Shown piece by piece: positions 1,509 through 9,947 of a stretch of 25,754 nucleotides of DNA. The stretch comes from a virus (Duplodnaviria; Heunggongvirae; Uroviricota; Caudoviricetes), in the IMG/VR virus record IMGVR_UViG_2740892213_000014; one strand, written 5' to 3'. The notes under the pieces were generated by a model. It was not told where the DNA came from and searched no databases. It saw nothing but the letters and a program-made list of their open reading frames with translations. A program made the position numbers and the translations under genes. The stretch's first letter is position 1. Each line of letters begins with the position of its first letter.

Positions 1509-2030
1509 ATGCGGGACTTCATTGCCGATAAAGAGTTATCTGACCACCAACCACTTCAGGAAAGTGACGCACTCAGCGGATCCATTGATGCCGCCAACGA
1601 CGACGAGCACGAAGAAAACAAGAAAAAGCGTTCCTACAAAAAAGGAGCGACTTTGCGGCTGGATGGTCCGATCGCCGGGCTTTGCTCTCTGGAAAAAGGC
1701 GCGGCATATATTGGGCTAACAAAATCTGCACTGCGCGTAGCCATTCATCGCGGTCAAATGCCGGGACACAAGACGCGCACAAACCCGGAAGATGAAAACT
1801 CAGACGGAGTATGGTGGTTTAACGCCAAAGAGTGGGACAAGTTGGCTGATGAGCTACCAGAGCACGAGCCCCCAGAATGGCACAACTGGAAAAGTTACTG
1901 GACGTATGACCGCCAGAAAAGGAAGTTCTCTCCAGCTAATAAAGAAGACTGCCAGACCATTAACGGTAAGCGAGTTTATACAGGCAGAAGCTCAAAACTG
2001 GACCAACTCAGAAACAACAGAGGCAACTAA
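1509..2030 (+). CDS. Cox-position protein with excisionase/AlpA-like HTH, 173 aa (unusually long)
   Basis: AGAGGA RBS before ATG 1509. Central segment AAYIGLTKSALRVAIHRGQMPGHK resembles the Xis/AlpA-type HTH. Acidic N-terminal stretch and W-rich C-terminal part have no obvious P2 Cox equivalent. Confidence 0.55.
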   Translation: MRDFIADKELSDHQPLQESDALSGSIDAANDDEHEENKKKRSYKKGATLRLDGPIAGLCSLEKGAAYIGLTKSALRVAIHRGQMPGHKTRTNPEDENSDGVWWFNAKEWDKLADELPEHEPPEWHNWKSYWTYDRQKRKFSPANKEDCQTINGKRVYTGRSSKLDQLRNNRGN

Positions 2031-2034
2031 TCGT

Positions 2035-2457
2035 ATGAAAACAAACACGTCAGATTTCACAATAACTATTTCAAAAAATGACCAAGCATTAATTGATAAC
2101 CTGAAATACCTTGCGGAAAAACATAATAACGGACGAATTGCAATTAATTTACGACACATCACAGGAGTAACAATTGTAACCAGTTACTGGCATCTATATC
2201 TAATCGCTAAATCAGTACTTGAAAACAAAGATTCTGTTGTCAATGGAAGAGATATAGATACTCTTCCTGCACAAATCAAACCGATAGCCTATCAATTGCG
2301 TAATCGTTTTAAAAATGAAGGTGGGATTATATTTGACTTTCCCGCAGCTGTAGCCGTGAGCTTCTCTCGGGAGGATATACTTCACTCATTTCGTTTTGCT
2401 CTATCAGGTGACGAGACATTATGGCAGCTAGAAGATGCCGGGAGCAGCCCGGCATAA
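2035..2457 (+). CDS. Hypothetical protein, 140 aa, AT-rich moron
   Basis: Start moved from track 1792 to ATG 2035 (MKTNTSDF…), just after the stop of the previous gene. Upstream part of the track ORF overlaps the previous gene out of frame. Visibly AT-rich codon usage relative to flanks. Confidence 0.5.
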   Translation: MKTNTSDFTITISKNDQALIDNLKYLAEKHNNGRIAINLRHITGVTIVTSYWHLYLIAKSVLENKDSVVNGRDIDTLPAQIKPIAYQLRNRFKNEGGIIFDFPAAVAVSFSREDILHSFRFALSGDETLWQLEDAGSSPA

Positions 2458-2463
2458 ATCAAA

Positions 2464-2655
2464 TTAAAAATCAACCAGTTGTGTGACAGGTGGGTATTTA
2501 CGCTGAATTTTGTCAGTTACTAACGCCAGTAATATATGAATCTCTGCGTTTAATGCGTCTTTATCACCCGTCGTTTTTACCCTGGGAGGGTTAATGTTAT
2601 CCAGAGCAGCACTAAGTTCACTCAACAAATTAACAACTTTTTTATCTTCTGACAT
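2464..2655 (-). CDS. Hypothetical small protein, 63 aa, convergent with the 140-aa gene
   Basis: ORF track. AAGAGG Shine-Dalgarno on minus strand upstream of ATG 2655. 3' ends of the two genes are 6 nt apart. Confidence 0.45.
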   Translation of the reverse strand: MSEDKKVVNLLSELSAALDNINPPRVKTTGDKDALNAEIHILLALVTDKIQRKYPPVTQLVDF

Positions 2656-2792
2656 GAAAACCTCTTAACAATTTAATTAAACATAAGCCAGGACCTGAAC
2701 CGGCCAGTCCAAGTCCTAGACACACAAAAAAAATACCACAAATCAATACAAGGTGACACGAGTACACCTTACCGAAGGTACAGAGTTTTAAT

Positions 2793-3143
2793 ATGAAACT
2801 ACAGCGCAATTCTTCACAGCAGCGCTTCCGCAACGGTGCGGAACGCCATGCTAACCGTTTCGCTACCAGTGCATCACGTAGCAACTCTCGCTACAGCCTG
2901 AGCGAAACACACGCAACGCCGGATGGCTACCCAGTAAAACAAATTGGTGAACACACTTGGCTGATTGAAAAAGCAGGAATCGTGGTTCACAGATGCCAGC
3001 GCAACCCATTTACCGGAAACCGCATTTTTGCACTGAGCAACGGCGACAATCAGTTCGGGCAGGATTTCACATTGTACGAAGCACTTCGCACAGTTGATCG
3101 TCTGCTTCGCGGACAAAGTTTTATTAAACAGGCTGATTTATAA
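2793..3143 (+). CDS. Hypothetical early protein, 116 aa
   Basis: ORF track; same orientation as early operon; weak RBS. Confidence 0.5.
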   Translation: MKLQRNSSQQRFRNGAERHANRFATSASRSNSRYSLSETHATPDGYPVKQIGEHTWLIEKAGIVVHRCQRNPFTGNRIFALSNGDNQFGQDFTLYEALRTVDRLLRGQSFIKQADL

Positions 3144-3686: not shown

Positions 3687-3796
3687 GTATATTTATCTCA
3701 TGGCTTGTTCTGATTATTTCGGTGGTCTGCGCCATTGGGATTATGCGAATTATTAATTCAGTGAAAAAGATCGAGCGTTTTTTCTCTGATGAATAA
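3683..3796 (+). CDS. Small hydrophobic ORF, 37 aa (MSIFISWLVLIISVVCAIGIMRIINSVKKIERFFSDE), predicted single transmembrane helix
   Basis: Translated by hand; not in ORF track (below its size cutoff). ATG 3683 overlaps TGA of upstream gene (ATGA coupling). Confidence 0.35.
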   Translation: MSIFISWLVLIISVVCAIGIMRIINSVKKIERFFSDE

Positions 3797-3888
3797 CGAT
3801 ACAAATAAAACATCAAATTAAATAAGAAAACGTGAAAACCATCCGTATTAACGGAGGTATTCGCACACGTAAATAATGGAGATATAAA

Positions 3889-4305
3889 ATGAACGCAAAA
3901 GAAGAAGGCATTATCAACACATTAAAAAAAATATCAGAAGCGGAAGATGAAATGGCTAAAGATGCCGTGAAGCGTAGCCAACATATGGCAGCACTTCACG
4001 CACTGACCATCGCAAAAATCACCGCTGACGCAGCCAAAATTATTGAGGAACAGGGCAAAGAAATCGACACTCTTAAAACACAGTCAACAGTTGCAGCCAT
4101 GAATCCGTCCAGCATTGGACGCCGCATTTACATTCTTGGTTCGGCAATAATGACGCAATACACCATTATTGCCGAACTGCACGGCAAATACCTGATAACG
4201 CCTTACCACACAAAGGAGTCAGAGCTTCTGACAAATCTCCGCCTGATAGAACGCTCTCAAGCTGTATTCATTGATGACGCGCAACGTGCCGTATTTAACG
4301 CATAG
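3889..4305 (+). CDS. Hypothetical early protein, 138 aa
   Basis: ORF track; GGAG RBS at 3876-3879. Confidence 0.55.
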   Translation: MNAKEEGIINTLKKISEAEDEMAKDAVKRSQHMAALHALTIAKITADAAKIIEEQGKEIDTLKTQSTVAAMNPSSIGRRIYILGSAIMTQYTIIAELHGKYLITPYHTKESELLTNLRLIERSQAVFIDDAQRAVFNA

Positions 4306-4328
4306 GGTTACTGGACAAAGGGGGCGCA

Positions 4329-4532: not shown

Positions 4533-4795
4533 CCATTCTGGACTACATCGCTACTCATCCGGGGTGTAGCGGCGGAGAGATCGCCGCAGCACTGAATACT
4601 CCAACCACAGCCATTAATGCTGAGTTACGCCAACTTTGGCGCGGCGGCTTAGTCATCAGAACAAACCGCAGCACAGGTGGTCGCGCTCGCAAAACTGGAG
4701 GCCAGGCTTCTTACCACGTAAACCCGATGCCGTTCGGGTGTAGCAATCCACTTACTCACATGTTTAACCAGCTACTGAAGGAAGCCAGAGCATGA
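4529..4795 (+). CDS. Hypothetical protein, 88 aa, possible winged-helix DNA-binding fold
   Basis: ORF track; start overlaps stop of previous gene (coupled). HTH-like N-terminal segment; fold assignment is inference only. Confidence 0.5.
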   Translation: MTILDYIATHPGCSGGEIAAALNTPTTAINAELRQLWRGGLVIRTNRSTGGRARKTGGQASYHVNPMPFGCSNPLTHMFNQLLKEARA

Positions 4796-5091
4796 GCACC
4801 ATCAACCACCAGAAGCTACGCGAACTGGCATTTGCCCTGCAACGAATGGCAACGCCTCAAAAATTACTGGCATTTCGCGCAATGCTCTCGCCGTCTGCTG
4901 TGCTGGCATTGCTGGATGAGCTGGAGCACGCCAGAACCACGGCTCCTGCCATTCGCCTGACGCTCCATCATGAAATCGCTGATTTCTGCGCGACATTGGA
5001 GGCGCCAGGCGAACCGGAAACGCCGGAAGCAATACAGCAAGAGCTGCTGCAACGCATTGACAAGGTTTTTGATTTTTTTCTGAACCAGTAA
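4792..5091 (+). CDS. Hypothetical early protein, 99 aa
   Basis: ORF track; start overlaps stop of previous gene. Confidence 0.5.
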   Translation: MSTINHQKLRELAFALQRMATPQKLLAFRAMLSPSAVLALLDELEHARTTAPAIRLTLHHEIADFCATLEAPGEPETPEAIQQELLQRIDKVFDFFLNQ

Positions 5092-5213
5092 GAAACCAGA
5101 GCATGCACACACAAAAAAACCGCTTGCCATGCCGCAATCGGTCAGGTTACATTTCCGCTGCACCTCATAAAACGGGTGCCGGGATTCTCAACCCGATACA
5201 GAGCAAAGCGCAT

Positions 5214-5236
5214 AACCGCGCCAGCGGTTTTTTTGT
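5214..5236 (+). terminator. Candidate intrinsic terminator: stem AACCGC/GCGGTT, loop GCCA, then 7-T run
   Basis: Read directly from sequence at 5214-5234; lies in a ~320-bp non-coding gap inside the early operon. Confidence 0.45.
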
Positions 5237-5413
5237 GCGTACTGTATTGCCACGTCTTTTTCGCGTCAGAATTATGGCGGGGCGTACGGGGCCGACTTCG
5301 GTCGGGCCGGATTCTTTGCTCTCCGGTGTTGAGAACCCTGTACGTCTCGCCACCCCGAGATTCTCAACTCTGGATGGTGAGTTATTTCTATCACCGAGCA
5401 AAGAGGCCACACC

Positions 5414-5644
5414 ATGGCAAACCGCAAACAGCACCGCGCTATCGCGGAGCGTCGTCACATCCAGACTGAAATCAACCGCAGACTTTCCCGCGCATTCCGC
5501 GTCGCTAAAATCATGCACATCAATATGCTGCATGAGCGTAGCTGCGAACTTTCAAACCTCTACTCATCCGCTGTTTTCAGCTATCTGGCGGATGATCTGC
5601 GCGAGCTTCAACAGCTCATCCAGCAGCAAAACAAACTCCATTAA
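5414..5644 (+). CDS. Hypothetical early protein, 76 aa
   Basis: ORF track; AAGAGG RBS at 5401-5406. Confidence 0.55.
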   Translation: MANRKQHRAIAERRHIQTEINRRLSRAFRVAKIMHINMLHERSCELSNLYSSAVFSYLADDLRELQQLIQQQNKLH

Positions 5645-6088: not shown

Positions 6089-8911
6089 ATGACGGCAGAG
6101 TACATCAGGGACTGGCAACAACCGCGCCACGCAGTGGGACGTGAAGGAACGGGGATCCCCGTTCCTGAATCCGCGCTTTCCTCCTGGCTGGATGCCTACC
6201 GGGCAGAGAACGAGCGCCGCCAGGAAATGGCTGATGCGGCGTTCTCCGCCACGCCGCTGGGCAACCTGATTAATAAAAGCCTGGATGCACAGGAAAAACA
6301 GGACAAAACCATCACACTGGCAGGAGACGCCAGAAAACAGGTACGCGGTGCGGTGGATGAAGCCATGGCCTCGCTGCGCCTGCTGCCGTCCTATCTGCGC
6401 GATCCGCTTATTCGCCACCTCTCCTTCCTGCGCAAAAAACAGGAAGCCGATCGCCGGAAAGGCAAAAAGAGCTGGCAGGCTGAACGCTACGCGCGCGGAA
6501 CCCTGCGCAAAATATTCGAACGTCTGGACCGCACCGACCACCGCTGGCTGACACCGGGTTATCGCTCCCTTGCCGGACGCGAACGCCTGGATGATTTGCT
6601 TTACCTGCCGCAGCTCAACAAGCACCAGATACAGACGCTGGCCACCATGACGGCGGCGATGTTCAGCAGCACCTTCGAAAAACTCTGCGATGGCTTTGGC
6701 GCGACTGATGGCGAGCTGACCATGGATGTAACGCTGAAGGCGTATCAGATGCTGGCCCGCATGGCGTTACACCTGCACGCCATGCCTCCGCATTATGACG
6801 CACTGACAACAGACAAAGACCGGAGGAACGAACCGGACACGGAGCTGCTGCCGGGCGCAATCCTTCGCCTGACCTGTGCGGAATGGTGGAAACGCAAACT
6901 GTGGCTGTTACGTTGCGAGTGGCGGGAAGAACAACTCCGCGCCGCCTGTCTGGTTTCCAGAAAAACATCGCCCTATCTGAGCCAGGACGCGTTAAGCGAG
7001 TTTCGCGCACAGCGCGAGAAAACACGCGATTTCCTGAAAAGTTTCATGCTGGAAAACGAAGACGGGTTCACGATTGATCTCGAGACGGTGTATTACGCGG
7101 GAGTAAGTAACCCGGTTCACCGTAAGGCAGAAATGATGGCCACCATGAAGGGGCTGGAACTTCTGGCCGAAGCCCGTGGCGACAAAGCGGTGTTTCTGAC
7201 TGTCACCTGCCCGTCAAAATACCACGCCACAACAGAGAACGGTCATCCGAATCCCAAATGGAACGGGGCCACCATGCGCGACTCCAGCGATTACCTGGTT
7301 AACACGTTTTTTGCGGCGGTCCGCAAGAAACTGAACCGCGACGGCCTGCGCTGGTATGGCATCCGCACGGTGGAGCCTCACCATGACGGCACCGTGCACT
7401 GGCATATGATGGTCTTTGCTCATCCGGAAGAAATCGACACCATTGTGTCCCACACCCGCGATATTGCCATTCAGGAAGATCGTCACGAGCTGGGTGATGA
7501 TATTACCCCACGCTTTAAGGCGGAGTACGTCGACGGCTCAAAAGGCACACCGACCAGCTACATCGCCACCTACATCGGGAAAAACCTGGACAGCCGTGCC
7601 GTGGATGGCATCGACCCGAAAACGGGCAAGCCACGCGTTGACCACGAAACCGGAAAATCAATGGCCGAGAGCGTGGAACGCGCCATCGGCTGGGCGCGCC
7701 TTCACCGGGTCCGCCAGTTCCAGTTCTTTGGTATCCCCTCCCGTCAGGTGTGGCGTGAACTGCGCCGCCTTGCCAGCCAGATGGCTCGCAACCCGGAAGG
7801 ACCGCAACGGCTGAAGGATGACGCAATGGACGCGGTTCTTGCTGCCGCTGATGCCGGATGTTTTGCCACCTACATAGAGAAACAGGGCGGCGTACTTGTT
7901 CCACGCAAGGACTACCTGATTCGCACCGCCTACGACCTCGCCGATGAGCTGAACGATTACGGTGAACAGAGCGTACAGATTTACGGGATCTGGTCACCGC
8001 TCATCGGGGAGTCTTCCCGCGTATGCACGCATCCGGACAACTGGAAGCTGGTAAGACGCAAACCGGAAGCGGAAGACAGCGCCCGCGAAAATGGTTTTGA
8101 CCTTCAGGGCGGCCCTGCCGCACCTTGGACTCGTGGCAATAACTGTCCCCGTGTACAGGAAACGGACAACAACGGGACAGAACAGCCGGAAGAACGGCCA
8201 GCACCGTGGCCGCAGCTTCCTGACGGCGTTGACGTGAACGAATGGATGCGCTCACTGAAACGGCACGAACGCCGGGCGCTGATGCGTTCGCTGCGTGACA
8301 AACAGGCAAAAAACAGCAGTGATGAAATGCAGAGCTGGACACAGAGCCGCAAACAGCAGCGGCCTTTGCCTGATAACCACGAATTACTCGCTAAAGAATG
8401 GCGGGAATCTGCCGAATCTCTCGGCCTGCATATCGGTGAACAGCAGATGCAGCACCTGTTACGGGGCGGCAGCCTGTACGTTGACGGCAGCATCATTGCA
8501 CCGCAGGGATTTGAAATTGTACGCAAACCGGATACCCGCCCGGACAGCCGAATCACGCAGCTCTGGCAGCGCCTGAGCCGTAATCACGGCGTAAGCAGCA
8601 CGGAGATCCGCCATAACCCGGTCGCCAGCTATCTGGAACAGCTGGGGGCATCAGACCCCGAAGCCGCCGCACGTCTGGCATCCACACTTCAGCAGGACCA
8701 GAACACCATGAACCCCCCCGTTACCGTGCTTTCTGACATGCTGCGCGCCATCCGCGACGCAGAGCACGCACAGAGAATCAGTGAAACCACTGAACGTGCC
8801 CGCCGCAAAGCAGACCTGCTGCGGGGTGGCCTGACCAGTGGAAACAAAAAACAGACAGAAACGGGATTCACAAATCCCGTAAATGAGCAAAAAACGCGCC
8901 GCGATATATGA
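6089..8911 (+). CDS. A: Rolling-circle replication initiator / replication endonuclease, P2 gpA family, 940 aa
   Basis: HUH-type motif VHWHMMVF and paired catalytic tyrosines in SYIATYIGKN (Y-x3-Y) are typical of gpA/phiX174-A-type initiators. Position between early genes and portal matches P2 synteny. Protein is longer than I recall for P2 A, with a C-terminal extension. Confidence 0.88.
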   Translation: MTAEYIRDWQQPRHAVGREGTGIPVPESALSSWLDAYRAENERRQEMADAAFSATPLGNLINKSLDAQEKQDKTITLAGDARKQVRGAVDEAMASLRLLPSYLRDPLIRHLSFLRKKQEADRRKGKKSWQAERYARGTLRKIFERLDRTDHRWLTPGYRSLAGRERLDDLLYLPQLNKHQIQTLATMTAAMFSSTFEKLCDGFGATDGELTMDVTLKAYQMLARMALHLHAMPPHYDALTTDKDRRNEPDTELLPGAILRLTCAEWWKRKLWLLRCEWREEQLRAACLVSRKTSPYLSQDALSEFRAQREKTRDFLKSFMLENEDGFTIDLETVYYAGVSNPVHRKAEMMATMKGLELLAEARGDKAVFLTVTCPSKYHATTENGHPNPKWNGATMRDSSDYLVNTFFAAVRKKLNRDGLRWYGIRTVEPHHDGTVHWHMMVFAHPEEIDTIVSHTRDIAIQEDRHELGDDITPRFKAEYVDGSKGTPTSYIATYIGKNLDSRAVDGIDPKTGKPRVDHETGKSMAESVERAIGWARLHRVRQFQFFGIPSRQVWRELRRLASQMARNPEGPQRLKDDAMDAVLAAADAGCFATYIEKQGGVLVPRKDYLIRTAYDLADELNDYGEQSVQIYGIWSPLIGESSRVCTHPDNWKLVRRKPEAEDSARENGFDLQGGPAAPWTRGNNCPRVQETDNNGTEQPEERPAPWPQLPDGVDVNEWMRSLKRHERRALMRSLRDKQAKNSSDEMQSWTQSRKQQRPLPDNHELLAKEWRESAESLGLHIGEQQMQHLLRGGSLYVDGSIIAPQGFEIVRKPDTRPDSRITQLWQRLSRNHGVSSTEIRHNPVASYLEQLGASDPEAAARLASTLQQDQNTMNPPVTVLSDMLRAIRDAEHAQRISETTERARRKADLLRGGLTSGNKKQTETGFTNPVNEQKTRRDI

Positions 8912-8956
8912 AGCGCACACAAAACAGGCAAAAACGGGATTTCAGAATCCCGTAAA
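8858..8956. repeat. Two ~26-bp direct repeats, each with a perfect 8-bp-arm palindrome ACGGGATT-N4-AATCCCGT (8861-8880 and 8934-8953); candidate parC-like centromere or operator
   Basis: Read directly from sequence. Repeats bracket the stop codon of A and lie just upstream of the ParM homologue. Confidence 0.35.
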
Positions 8957-8987
8957 CGATTAATTAATCAACATAAGGAAAAGCGAC

Positions 8988-9947
8988 ATGAAAATTTGTA
9001 TCGACGACGGCTCCACCAACATCAAGCTGGCATGGACTGAGAATGGCGAACGCCGCAACGCCATCAGCCCGAACAGCTTCAAGTCGGAATGGTCTGCGCC
9101 GTTCGGTGGCATGCAGCCCGCGAACTACATGCTTGATGGCGTGCGCTATGGTTTTGATCCGGTCAGCGATCGCTTTGTCCAGACGACCGACACGCAATAC
9201 CAGTACAGCGATGTGAATGTAATCGCCATTCATCACGCGCTGGTCAAATCAGGCATCACGCCACAGGAGGTGGATGTGGTTGTCACCCTGCCACTGAGCG
9301 AGTATTTCGACACAAACGCACAGCCGGACATGGCCAACATCAACCGCAAAAAAGCGAACGTTATGCGCCCGGTGGAGTACCAGAACGGCGAAGCATTCAC
9401 TATCCGTAACGTGCGGGTTATGCCTGAATCCATTCCGGCTGGCTTTAAAGCACTGGCTGACATGAGTCCGTTTGAATCCCTGCTGATTGTGGATTTAGGC
9501 GGAACCACGCTGGATGTGGCAAAGGTTCAGGGGCAACTGGCAGGTATCAGCCAGGTGTTTTGCGATCCACACGTAGGCGTCTCCCTGATGGCCGGTGCCG
9601 TGCTGTCGGTGATGGCCGCTAACGGTATGCGTACCAGTCACCACATCGCCAATACCATTATCGAACATCGCCATGATGAAGCCTGGTTGCGCCAACACAT
9701 CCACAATGACGCGCATTACGCCAGCCTGATGGCGGTTATTCGTGAAAAGGAAGAAACACTGAAACAACGCGTGATCCGCGCGCTGGCGGGTTTTTCGGGT
9801 TACGGGCGGGTGATGGTTGTCGGTGGCGGGGCGGAGATTGTGGCACCCGCTATCCGCGAAGCCTGCGGAGTTAATGCGACTTTCATCGCGGACGGGGTGC
9901 CACAGTTTGCTCTGGTTAATGGGCTGTACGCAATGGACAAGGAGTAA
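8988..9947 (+). CDS. parM: Actin-like segregation ATPase, ParM/StbA family, 319 aa
   Basis: Long-range similarity to plasmid R1 ParM as I recall it (N-terminal IDDGSTNIKL, YSDVNV…HHAL, VMPESIPAG, DLGGTTLD, VGGGAE). AAGGAA RBS upstream. Confidence 0.8.
   Translation: MKICIDDGSTNIKLAWTENGERRNAISPNSFKSEWSAPFGGMQPANYMLDGVRYGFDPVSDRFVQTTDTQYQYSDVNVIAIHHALVKSGITPQEVDVVVTLPLSEYFDTNAQPDMANINRKKANVMRPVEYQNGEAFTIRNVRVMPESIPAGFKALADMSPFESLLIVDLGGTTLDVAKVQGQLAGISQVFCDPHVGVSLMAGAVLSVMAANGMRTSHHIANTIIEHRHDEAWLRQHIHNDAHYASLMAVIREKEETLKQRVIRALAGFSGYGRVMVVGGGAEIVAPAIREACGVNATFIADGVPQFALVNGLYAMDKE

Follow-up and report, generated by a model that had tools for sequence, protein, structure and literature searches.

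An AT-rich, exchangeable pair of convergent genes downstream of cox in P2-like prophages

We analyzed a 25,754-nt stretch of viral DNA (IMG/VR record IMGVR_UViG_2740892213_000014; hereafter, the window) whose left end is the immunity end of a P2-like prophage. Between the cox gene and the next conserved early gene, which encodes a DUF4761 protein, lies a 745-bp segment (2031..2775) with two protein-coding genes: ORF140 (140 amino acids, 2035..2457, + strand) and ORF63 (63 amino acids, 2464..2655, - strand). The evidence largely establishes that this segment is an accessory cassette, exchangeable among P2-like (P88-type, Xuanwuvirus) prophages, and that its two genes have opposite expression logic. 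A preliminary description of the window, made by a model from the letters, had drawn attention to AT-rich convergent genes of 140 and 63 codons with 3' ends 6 nt apart, and the open reading frames (ORFs) and their GC content confirm this. ORF140 starts with an ATG at 2035, 4 nt past the stop codon of cox, and ends with TAA at 2455-2457; ORF63 starts with an ATG at 2655 and its stop codon is at 2464-2466. The stop codons of the two genes are separated by 6 nt (2458-2463), and a 137-bp spacer separates ORF63 from the ATG of the DUF4761 gene (2793).

The cassette differs in composition from the phage genes on either side of it. GC content is 38.3% for ORF140, 37.5% for ORF63, and 38.7% for the spacer, versus 50.0% for cox and 49.3% for the DUF4761 gene. 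At third codon positions (GC3), the pair have 29% and 31% GC, versus 54% and 47% for the flanking cox and DUF4761 genes. When GC content was computed along the whole window, 2031-2775 was the lowest-GC stretch of 745 bp (38.3%, versus a mean of 53.3% with a standard deviation of 4.9). It lies about three standard deviations under the mean, and only 0.3% of 745-bp windows are as low.

The borders of the cassette were obtained from blastn alignments to prophages or phages EC361 (locus L006), P88 (L001), and P88_4B11 (L003). One of these is from E. coli EC361, whose integrase protein is identical to that of the window, whose cox DNA is 95.6% identical, and whose repressor is the same as that of a pair-carrying prophage in UTI89. 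Homology to EC361 ends at 2030, with the cox stop codon, and restarts at 2776, which is 17 nt 5' of the DUF4761 ATG. Across P88, EC361, and P88_4B11, homology restarts at 2776-2786. Between the same borders, EC361 carries 318 bp of other cargo that encodes a 68-amino-acid membrane protein. In P88, the gap from cox to the DUF4761 gene is only 37 bp and the pair is missing. S1-CAM-02-A has a single 64-amino-acid gene at the post-cox site, P88_4B11 has three small genes, and OkiPb01677 has three genes, one of which is leftward. The pair is absent from P88, P88_4B11, EC361, and S1-CAM-02-A. Because relatives carry different cargo between the same borders, the cox-DUF4761 junction is a variable site, and the cassette at 2031-2775 is an indel with sharp borders. 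A comparison of this junction across P2-like relatives was one check that the preliminary description had proposed, and it gave this indel, with P88 and EC361 lacking the pair. Among 5,426 complete E. coli genomes, the pair is present in 272, nearly always at 99% identity or above, and this type of cox is present in 311.

These results bear on the idea, also in the preliminary description, that the pair is an acquired moron. Two properties of morons are seen here: the cassette is present or absent among close relatives at a precise junction (2030/2776 relative to EC361, and 37 bp in P88), and its composition is unlike that of the flanking phage genes. Nor do the genes behave like core early genes, as they are absent from four relatives, are AT-rich, and have no homology to core early proteins; universal conservation with ordinary composition is not what we observe. 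The idea holds insofar as ORF63 has the predicted anatomy of a moron (described below) and the pair is absent from close relatives. It does not hold insofar as it implies a sporadic acquisition, because the pair belongs to a family that recurs at the post-cox site.

To find relatives, we used a word-indexed search over 5.8 billion proteins and an exhaustive HMMER scan over 1.84 billion representatives. The word-indexed search returned only near-identical E. coli copies for each protein. The HMMER scan found distant relatives of ORF140, and a later profile search expanded these to a small Salmonella family of 131-147 amino acids and two longer fusions. In all, homologues of both proteins were found at 21-45% amino acid identity. 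No relatives of ORF140 or ORF63 were found among the GTDB species representatives, and a metagenome scan found the E. coli allele only. All of the ORF140 relatives that could be placed lie directly downstream of cox in P2-like prophages of Salmonella or E. coli, and those prophages differ in their integrase, repressor, type of Cox, and integration site.

In nine lineages (the window, L009, L013, L014, L016, L018, L030, L037, and L040), a convergent gene for a protein of 60-63 amino acids comes after the ORF140-like gene. All nine share the same features: a post-cox location, convergent genes, the two conserved motifs of the small protein, 3' ends that abut or overlap, and a leftward TGnTAnnnT element with a 5' hairpin. 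The Salmonella versions have a 4-nt overlap between the two reading frames. The small proteins are 25-42% identical to ORF63, and their invariant residues include D4, K6, L10-L11, A17-L18, and K53-Y54-P55. Given these homologues and dN/dS values (ratios of nonsynonymous to synonymous substitution rates) of 0.17-0.7 for the large gene and 0.14-0.6 for the small gene, sequence comparison indicates that ORF140 and ORF63 are real genes under purifying selection. It likewise indicates that the pair is a recurrent module of the post-cox site and not a one-off acquisition. If we compare the pairwise identities of the large proteins to those of the small proteins, the loci sort into the same groups (Pearson r = 0.82).

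The two genes do not always travel together. Between L018 and L037, the small genes are identical but the large genes share only about 52% identity, a sign that recombination has occurred between the large gene and the small one. Relative to L016, L011 is missing exactly the small gene and the spacer (276 bp) and retains the large gene, and L039 has the same layout. We did not find any ORF63-like gene without an ORF140-like neighbor in these roughly nine lineages, a count that leaves out 17 near-identical loci of the E. coli type (at least 97% identity to ORF63, from scans of IMG/VR and metagenomes).

The related loci show several other arrangements. In L009, two conserved hydrophobic mini-ORFs (4672-4848 and 4876-4989, of 58 and about 37 amino acids, each with a single transmembrane-like segment) lie between cox and the ORF140-like gene, and the second mini-ORF ends at the Shine-Dalgarno sequence of the ORF140-like gene. 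L011, L012, L014, L016, and L018 have equivalents of both; the window has none. L013 (4245-5937) contains two convergent modules in tandem, the first encoding 147 and 62 amino acids and the second encoding 225 and 103 amino acids. ORF140-like domains are also fused to different C-terminal domains (P0016 and P0019), and domain shuffling can be seen at L012 5001-6237, L009 5766-6804, and L018 4461-5339. One C-terminal domain ('IRVISSFIPA...') occurs together with a 103-amino-acid leftward partner in both L009 and L013, and this co-occurrence suggests cognate domain-partner pairs. The Salmonella loci also share a conserved spacer element, about 100-150 nt long, which recurs both within single loci and from locus to locus on the right-hand side of various leftward genes (encoding 62, 103, 108, or 168 amino acids): it is found at L009 5620-5745 and 6825-6950, L012 6240-6400, L013 5940-6100, L016 7010-7160, and L030 about 3850-3990. 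This element includes a leftward TGnTAnnnT, a 5' hairpin, and, on the + strand, a CCGGG...CCCGG hairpin that is followed by T's. It could be a shared promoter/terminator block and a recombination linker for cassette swapping. Finally, the post-cox cargo of E. coli OkiPb01677 (L008 3032-4267) includes a distant ORF140-like protein of 131 amino acids with a TTTYSELH motif, a 172-amino-acid protein, and a leftward 107-amino-acid protein with its own TGGTATTCT motif. None of these L008 cargo proteins could be assigned to a family.

The predicted expression signals within the cassette belong to ORF63. In order along the minus strand, these are an extended -10 element without a good -35 (TGGTATTTT, 2738-2730), a run of T's, a stem-loop of 14 bp (2719-2688) that would form at the mRNA 5' end, and the Shine-Dalgarno sequence AAGAGG (2666-2661), which is 5 nt before the ATG at 2655. 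The stem-loop is strand-specific: the predicted folding energy is -20.5 kcal/mol in the leftward RNA (z = -3.46) and -7.8 kcal/mol in the rightward RNA (z = -0.89), because four G-U pairs turn into A-C mismatches. The spacers of other loci fall into sequence classes that cannot be aligned with the spacer of the window. They nevertheless contain TGnTAnnnT, then a strong hairpin within about 10 nt, and then a Shine-Dalgarno sequence. In three non-homologous classes of spacer, TGnTAnnnT is found 66-74 nt upstream of the ATG; the chance of this is 0.014-0.074 per class, with a position window that was set after the data were seen.

At its other end, the leftward unit has a terminator-like hairpin on the minus strand (2435..2455), with an 8-bp GC-rich stem followed by CUUCUAGCU. 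This hairpin, which lies within the final codons of ORF140, begins 8 nt past the stop codon of ORF63 and has a folding energy of -13.7 kcal/mol (z = -2.85). Every lineage has a hairpin 8-35 nt past the stop codon of the small gene and within the last codons of the ORF140-like gene, and in five diverged lineages a hairpin at the terminator position is shared with the window. L014, L016, L018, and L037 have a canonical intrinsic terminator, with a 10-11-bp stem and UUUUUCUUU; with its CUUCUAGCU and weak U tract, the hairpin in the window is a weaker terminator. The predicted promoter and terminator of ORF63 keep their positions in diverged lineages, and ORF140 has neither.

From these signals, ORF63 appears to be transcribed leftward as a unit of its own, about 290 nt long and built like a moron, and its expression is probably constitutive in the lysogen. 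We found no rightward promoter or terminator between cox and the DUF4761 gene, and ORF140, which has no promoter of its own, is predicted to belong to the early transcript from Pe. Early transcription would then have to cross the opposing unit on its way to the other early genes. The preliminary description had read the spacer as a promoter-like region that precedes the early genes. That reading is not supported: the conserved signals face left and appear to serve ORF63, and the sequence up to 2775 is part of the cassette.

Three other roles for signals in the spacer were considered and rejected. The cassette contains no copy of AAGATAACC, the repeat that we describe below as a probable operator, so we rejected control of the ORF63 promoter by the repressor. 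We discarded the idea that the spacer hairpin terminates or attenuates rightward transcription, since it is weak in + strand RNA and has no U tract. The idea of a promoter that restarts transcription at the DUF4761 gene was rejected because no + strand promoter was found and because 37 bp is enough in P88. We also note that the run of eight A's at 2726-2733 (T8 on the ORF63 strand, beginning inside the predicted -10) reads A6 or A7 in other cassette alleles. Such variation could be phase-like tuning of the promoter, or it could be homopolymer sequencing noise.

Neither protein resembles a characterized family. We compared ORF140, ORF63, 15 members of the ORF140 family, and cargo proteins from related loci to Pfam, PHROGs, PADLOC, and NCBIfam. 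Neither the pair nor the 15 family members matched any family in Pfam, NCBIfam, or PADLOC or any PHROG of known function. The best matches were sub-threshold noise (DUF1408 at E = 0.021) or PHROGs of unknown function (E = 0.039 for the protein from the window and E = 5e-8 for the best family member), and none of these is a core early protein. Among the defence profiles of PADLOC-DB 2.0, there was no match for the pair, and related-locus cargo had non-significant matches only. Sequence-profile searches of the PDB were empty for both proteins, and Rfam has no family within 2031-2792. We also searched the literature for the RefSeq protein accessions and for the names of the phages and found no functional report and no paper that mentions these proteins.

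Structure prediction, another check that the preliminary description had proposed, gave no fold match. For ORF140, AlphaFold 2 (AF2) run on the family alignment predicts an alpha-beta-beta-alpha unit that occurs twice, with low confidence (pLDDT 61, pTM 0.54). An alignment of one half of ORF140 to the other with hhalign was in the expected register and was weak (P = 6e-4, probability 29%), so an internal duplication of ORF140 is no more than suggested. The ORF140 family has conserved N- and C-terminal parts, and its invariant polar residues look more like helix N-cap boxes than like an active site. For ORF63, AF2 run on the single sequence predicts a generic two-helix hairpin. There were no structural matches for the predicted models, including the ORF63 model, which has no structural neighbor in the PDB by Foldseek. 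ORF63 is acidic and predicted to be soluble, and its conserved motifs are MxxDxK..LL..AL and KYP; ORF140 is also predicted to be soluble. Both proteins are small and acidic to neutral (isoelectric points of 4.6-6.8), with no transmembrane segment (maximum KD19 of 0.68 and 1.12), and neither has a helix-turn-helix (HTH) or other DNA-binding signal. This character argues against DNA-binding regulators and against membrane toxins, and it would suit proteins that act by binding other proteins. We rejected the proposal that ORF140 is an analogue of P2 gene B or of 186 cII, given that phages can do without the cassette and that ORF140 lacks both an HTH and homology to them.

From the architecture and distribution of the two genes, our best guess is that they form a cognate antagonistic pair, whose members would act by binding and not by catalysis. 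We tentatively prefer a reading, in which our confidence is limited, where ORF63 is a lysogen-expressed inhibitor (exclusion) and ORF140 is an early-lytic neutraliser (self-immunity). ORF63 would be expressed from the repressed prophage as a classical moron, from its own predicted promoter and with a stabilising 5' stem-loop, a strong Shine-Dalgarno sequence, and a terminator-like hairpin. It would block one step of P2-like lytic growth and would thereby provide superinfection exclusion against kin. ORF140 would be made only once Pe fires, at infection or induction; as the first protein after Cox, it would neutralise ORF63 so that the resident phage could grow. An incoming phage with a cognate ORF140 would also escape, and L011 and L039, which have kept the ORF140-like gene and lost the ORF63-like gene, would be orphan carriers of the counter-measure. 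We favor this direction because the neutraliser would be the first gene after cox, because the ORF63 promoter has no repressor operators, because the module is dispensable for the immunity switch, and because ORF140-like genes persist alone and ORF63-like genes do not: the loss of an antidote would cripple the phage, but the loss of an effector would not. The broader picture, which we regard as doubtful, is of a phage-phage conflict module in which a protein of about 60 amino acids excludes P2-like competitors (and possibly satellites), an early neutraliser exempts the phage that carries it, and the module diversifies and is swapped at a dedicated post-cox site via conserved spacer elements.

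Several considerations weigh against this explanation. The promoter, transcription start, and terminator of ORF63 are predictions, and the U tract of the terminator in the window is weak. The direction of the antagonism depends on a small sample (two clear orphans versus none). The coupling is looser than strict co-evolution, as seen in L018 and L037, and ORF140-like genes evolve faster. ORF140-like domains are also found fused to other C-terminal domains and with leftward partners of 103 or 168 amino acids. And no known exclusion or defence protein resembles ORF140 or ORF63.

The roles might instead be reversed, with ORF140 as a non-essential early effector that damages the host or takes it over (comparable to dhr and fil of 186 or kil of lambda) and ORF63 as a constitutive antidote that shields lysogens from leaky expression of Pe and from the ORF140 of superinfecting kin. 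This is rather unlikely in our view, although it explains the architecture and the pairing just as well, and a small, helical, acidic protein such as ORF63 would suit an inhibitor or antidote. The association of one ORF63-like allele with diverged ORF140-like alleles would make sense if the antidote bound ORF140 at its conserved N- and C-terminal parts, and the reversed roles may explain this better; losing ORF63 would also do little harm if ORF140 appears only in cells that are doomed anyway. But ORF140 has no toxin-like fold, motif, or family match, its invariant polar residues would be helix N-caps and not an active site, and we saw no orphan ORF63-like gene, while orphan immunity genes are usually common. 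Another explanation to which we give a low probability is that these are independent accessory genes that are linked by adjacency, with ORF63 as a lysogenic-conversion or defence moron that targets the host or unrelated phages and ORF140 as a non-essential early protein, such as an anti-defence protein. Recombination does separate the two genes (L018 versus L037), ORF140-like genes occur without an ORF63-like gene and with other partners, and the integrase-primase interval reportedly holds about 8% of the defence systems of P2-like phages (bioRxiv 10.64898/2026.02.27.708500). Against independence, the same two families are adjacent in at least nine diverged lineages with different flanks, with the terminator embedded in the large gene, and the small gene was never seen elsewhere.

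It is improbable that the cassette is part of the lysis-lysogeny switch, with its leftward promoter opposing Pe (by interference or antisense) or with its proteins acting as establishment factors like CII and CIII of 186 or lambda. The post-cox position does match that of 186 cII and the leftward pE, the convergent promoter is about 1.2 kb from Pe, and the weak terminator in the window would permit some antisense read-through into ORF140 and cox. However, the cassette is dispensable, as EC361 (with an identical integrase and a repressor identical to that in UTI89) and P88 lack the pair, and the leftward RNA would end early in some lineages: with a canonical terminator in L014, L016, L018, and L037, a long antisense RNA is not conserved. 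Because of this, and with two acidic proteins that have no DNA-binding signal, a role in the switch is unlikely. Least probable of all is that the pair belongs to a known toxin-antitoxin (TA) family or a catalogued anti-phage defence system; the two-gene layout and the suggestion in the preliminary description of a possible toxin/antitoxin-like or defence pair are what speak for it. We found no match in the family libraries, in PDB sequences, or among structures, and no toxin or antitoxin fold. A type II TA system would be a co-directional, autoregulated operon, but these genes are convergent with a 6-nt gap and are not co-transcribed. Nor does the pair include a known toxin superfamily with a DNA-binding antitoxin (HTH, ribbon-helix-helix (RHH), AbrB, or Phd). 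As for type I systems, which combine a small hydrophobic toxin with a non-coding antisense RNA, ORF63 is not hydrophobic and both genes encode conserved soluble proteins.

The genes around the cassette are as follows. To its left are the integrase (1-1008, - strand), the HTH repressor C (1063-1458, - strand), and cox (1509..2030, + strand; 173 amino acids; Phage_Cox, phrog_23196), which is the first gene of the early operon and the left anchor of the variable site. The right anchor is the DUF4761 gene (2793..3143, + strand), where the conserved early genes restart; it is followed by an unnamed gene for a 92-amino-acid protein and by a DUF4754 gene. The repeat AAGATAACC has direct copies at 1394 and 1427 and an inverted copy at 1440-1449, around a TTGACA at 1389, and we take these copies to be probable operators through which the C repressor acts on the Pe/Pc switch. 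In E. coli chromosomes, dmsA adjoins the prophage. Three deposited E. coli phage records (vB_EcoM-569R5, vB_EcoM-705R2, and the ST131-derived "Entero_P88") carry the pair and match the DNA of the window at 97% identity over 5.2 kb, and phage P88 (Xuanwuvirus, Peduoviridae) is related to the window only from 2786 rightwards.

We noticed a few other features to the right of the cassette. Two RNAs on the + strand score above the Rfam gathering threshold: isrK (5160-5234, 62.8 bits) and C4 antisense RNA (5270-5357, 78.5 bits). They lie just upstream of a gene for a 76-amino-acid 'derepression protein' (5414-5644), and the arrangement looks like P1 immI-like RNA control of an antirepressor within a P2-like prophage. 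The same pair of RNAs is present in Salmonella L009, at 8808-8996. There is also a second indel, of 448 bp (3870-4317), which contains a gene for a 138-amino-acid protein (3889-4305, phrog_9338, a PHROG of unknown function) that is preceded by a stretch of 33% GC (3687-3888). This block is absent from P88 and P88_4B11 and present in EC361. At 5109/5110 of the window, P88 has about 1.09 kb of extra DNA (P88 3890-4978) that encodes the gp11 membrane protein and gp12, a 'lipoprotein/serine protease'.

Hundreds of clinical E. coli genomes carry the pair, UTI89 among them, and so do deposited phage records, one of which is derived from ST131. As a small family of two proteins whose expression is predicted to be split between lysogenic and lytic states, it is a candidate for an exclusion and self-immunity pair or for an effector-immunity pair. 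If the conflict module is real, then about 5% of complete E. coli genomes, UTI89 and ST131 (the host of a phage record) among them, would encode exclusion and anti-exclusion at the level of proteins. Even if the pair is inert or incidental, the promoter in the spacer would serve an antisense gene, and early transcription apparently passes an opposing unit.

Some parts of this arrangement are familiar from other systems. In pore-forming colicins (A, E1, Ia, and K), the immunity gene is on the opposite strand and is constitutive, and the immunity proteins are membrane proteins. Similarly, in the cassette a gene that would be inducible faces a small gene with its own predicted promoter, whose product would act as an antagonist. 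However, ORF63 is soluble, ORF140 has no colicin domain or route of export, and there is no lysis gene, so the analogy is one of geometry only. The proposed logic of a prophage factor and an adjacent self-exempting element recalls sieB-esc of P22 and lambda and BstA-aba of Salmonella phage BTP1. In those systems, the self-exempting element is either a product encoded inside sieB (esc) or a stretch of DNA (aba); here, it would be a separate early protein, and there is no homology. We view the resemblance to colicins, sieB/esc, and BstA/aba as likeness and not as membership. Type I TA systems of Bacillus prophage-like elements, such as bsrG/SR4 and txpA/RatA, are also convergent, with abutting or overlapping 3' ends and possible mutual antisense. 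The pair differs in that it consists of two conserved proteins with no small hydrophobic peptide, and in some lineages the terminator limits the overlap. Like cII and pE of 186, the module lies directly downstream of the Cox/Apl gene and has a predicted leftward promoter that opposes the early transcript. Unlike a CII-type activator, ORF140 has no HTH, no similarity to CII, and an acidic-neutral isoelectric point (5-6.8); the module is dispensable with the same immunity region; and the leftward unit encodes its own protein and is predicted to end early.

The closest likeness is to phage morons. The definition of a moron reportedly comes from HK97 and lambda (Juhala, Hendrix and colleagues, 2000), and the lysogenic-conversion genes of P2 (old, tin, and Z/fun) are examples. 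As with morons, the cassette is patchy among near-identical relatives and low in GC, and ORF63 is a single gene with its own predicted promoter and terminator inside a phage operon, with expression expected from the prophage. It differs from the P2 morons in that ORF63 is antisense to the operon, with its terminator embedded in an operon partner gene, and the pair has no sequence relation to old, tin, or fun. The location also differs, as no characterized P2 hotspot lies where cox meets the early genes. Those described for P2-like phages are old/tin (between gpA and the portal gene), Z/fun, and the tail-to-CI/int region (bioRxiv 10.1101/2024.10.15.618418), and in the 2026 preprint that attributes about 8% of P2 defence systems to the integrase-primase interval, the post-cox pair is not described (bioRxiv 10.64898/2026.02.27.708500). 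The cox-early gene junction is a further site of accessory exchange, beside old/tin, Z/fun, and tail-CI. The best-fitting category for the pair is a phage moron or accessory cassette in a hotspot, and we consider the post-cox convergent pair to be a new, unannotated family within this known kind of feature.

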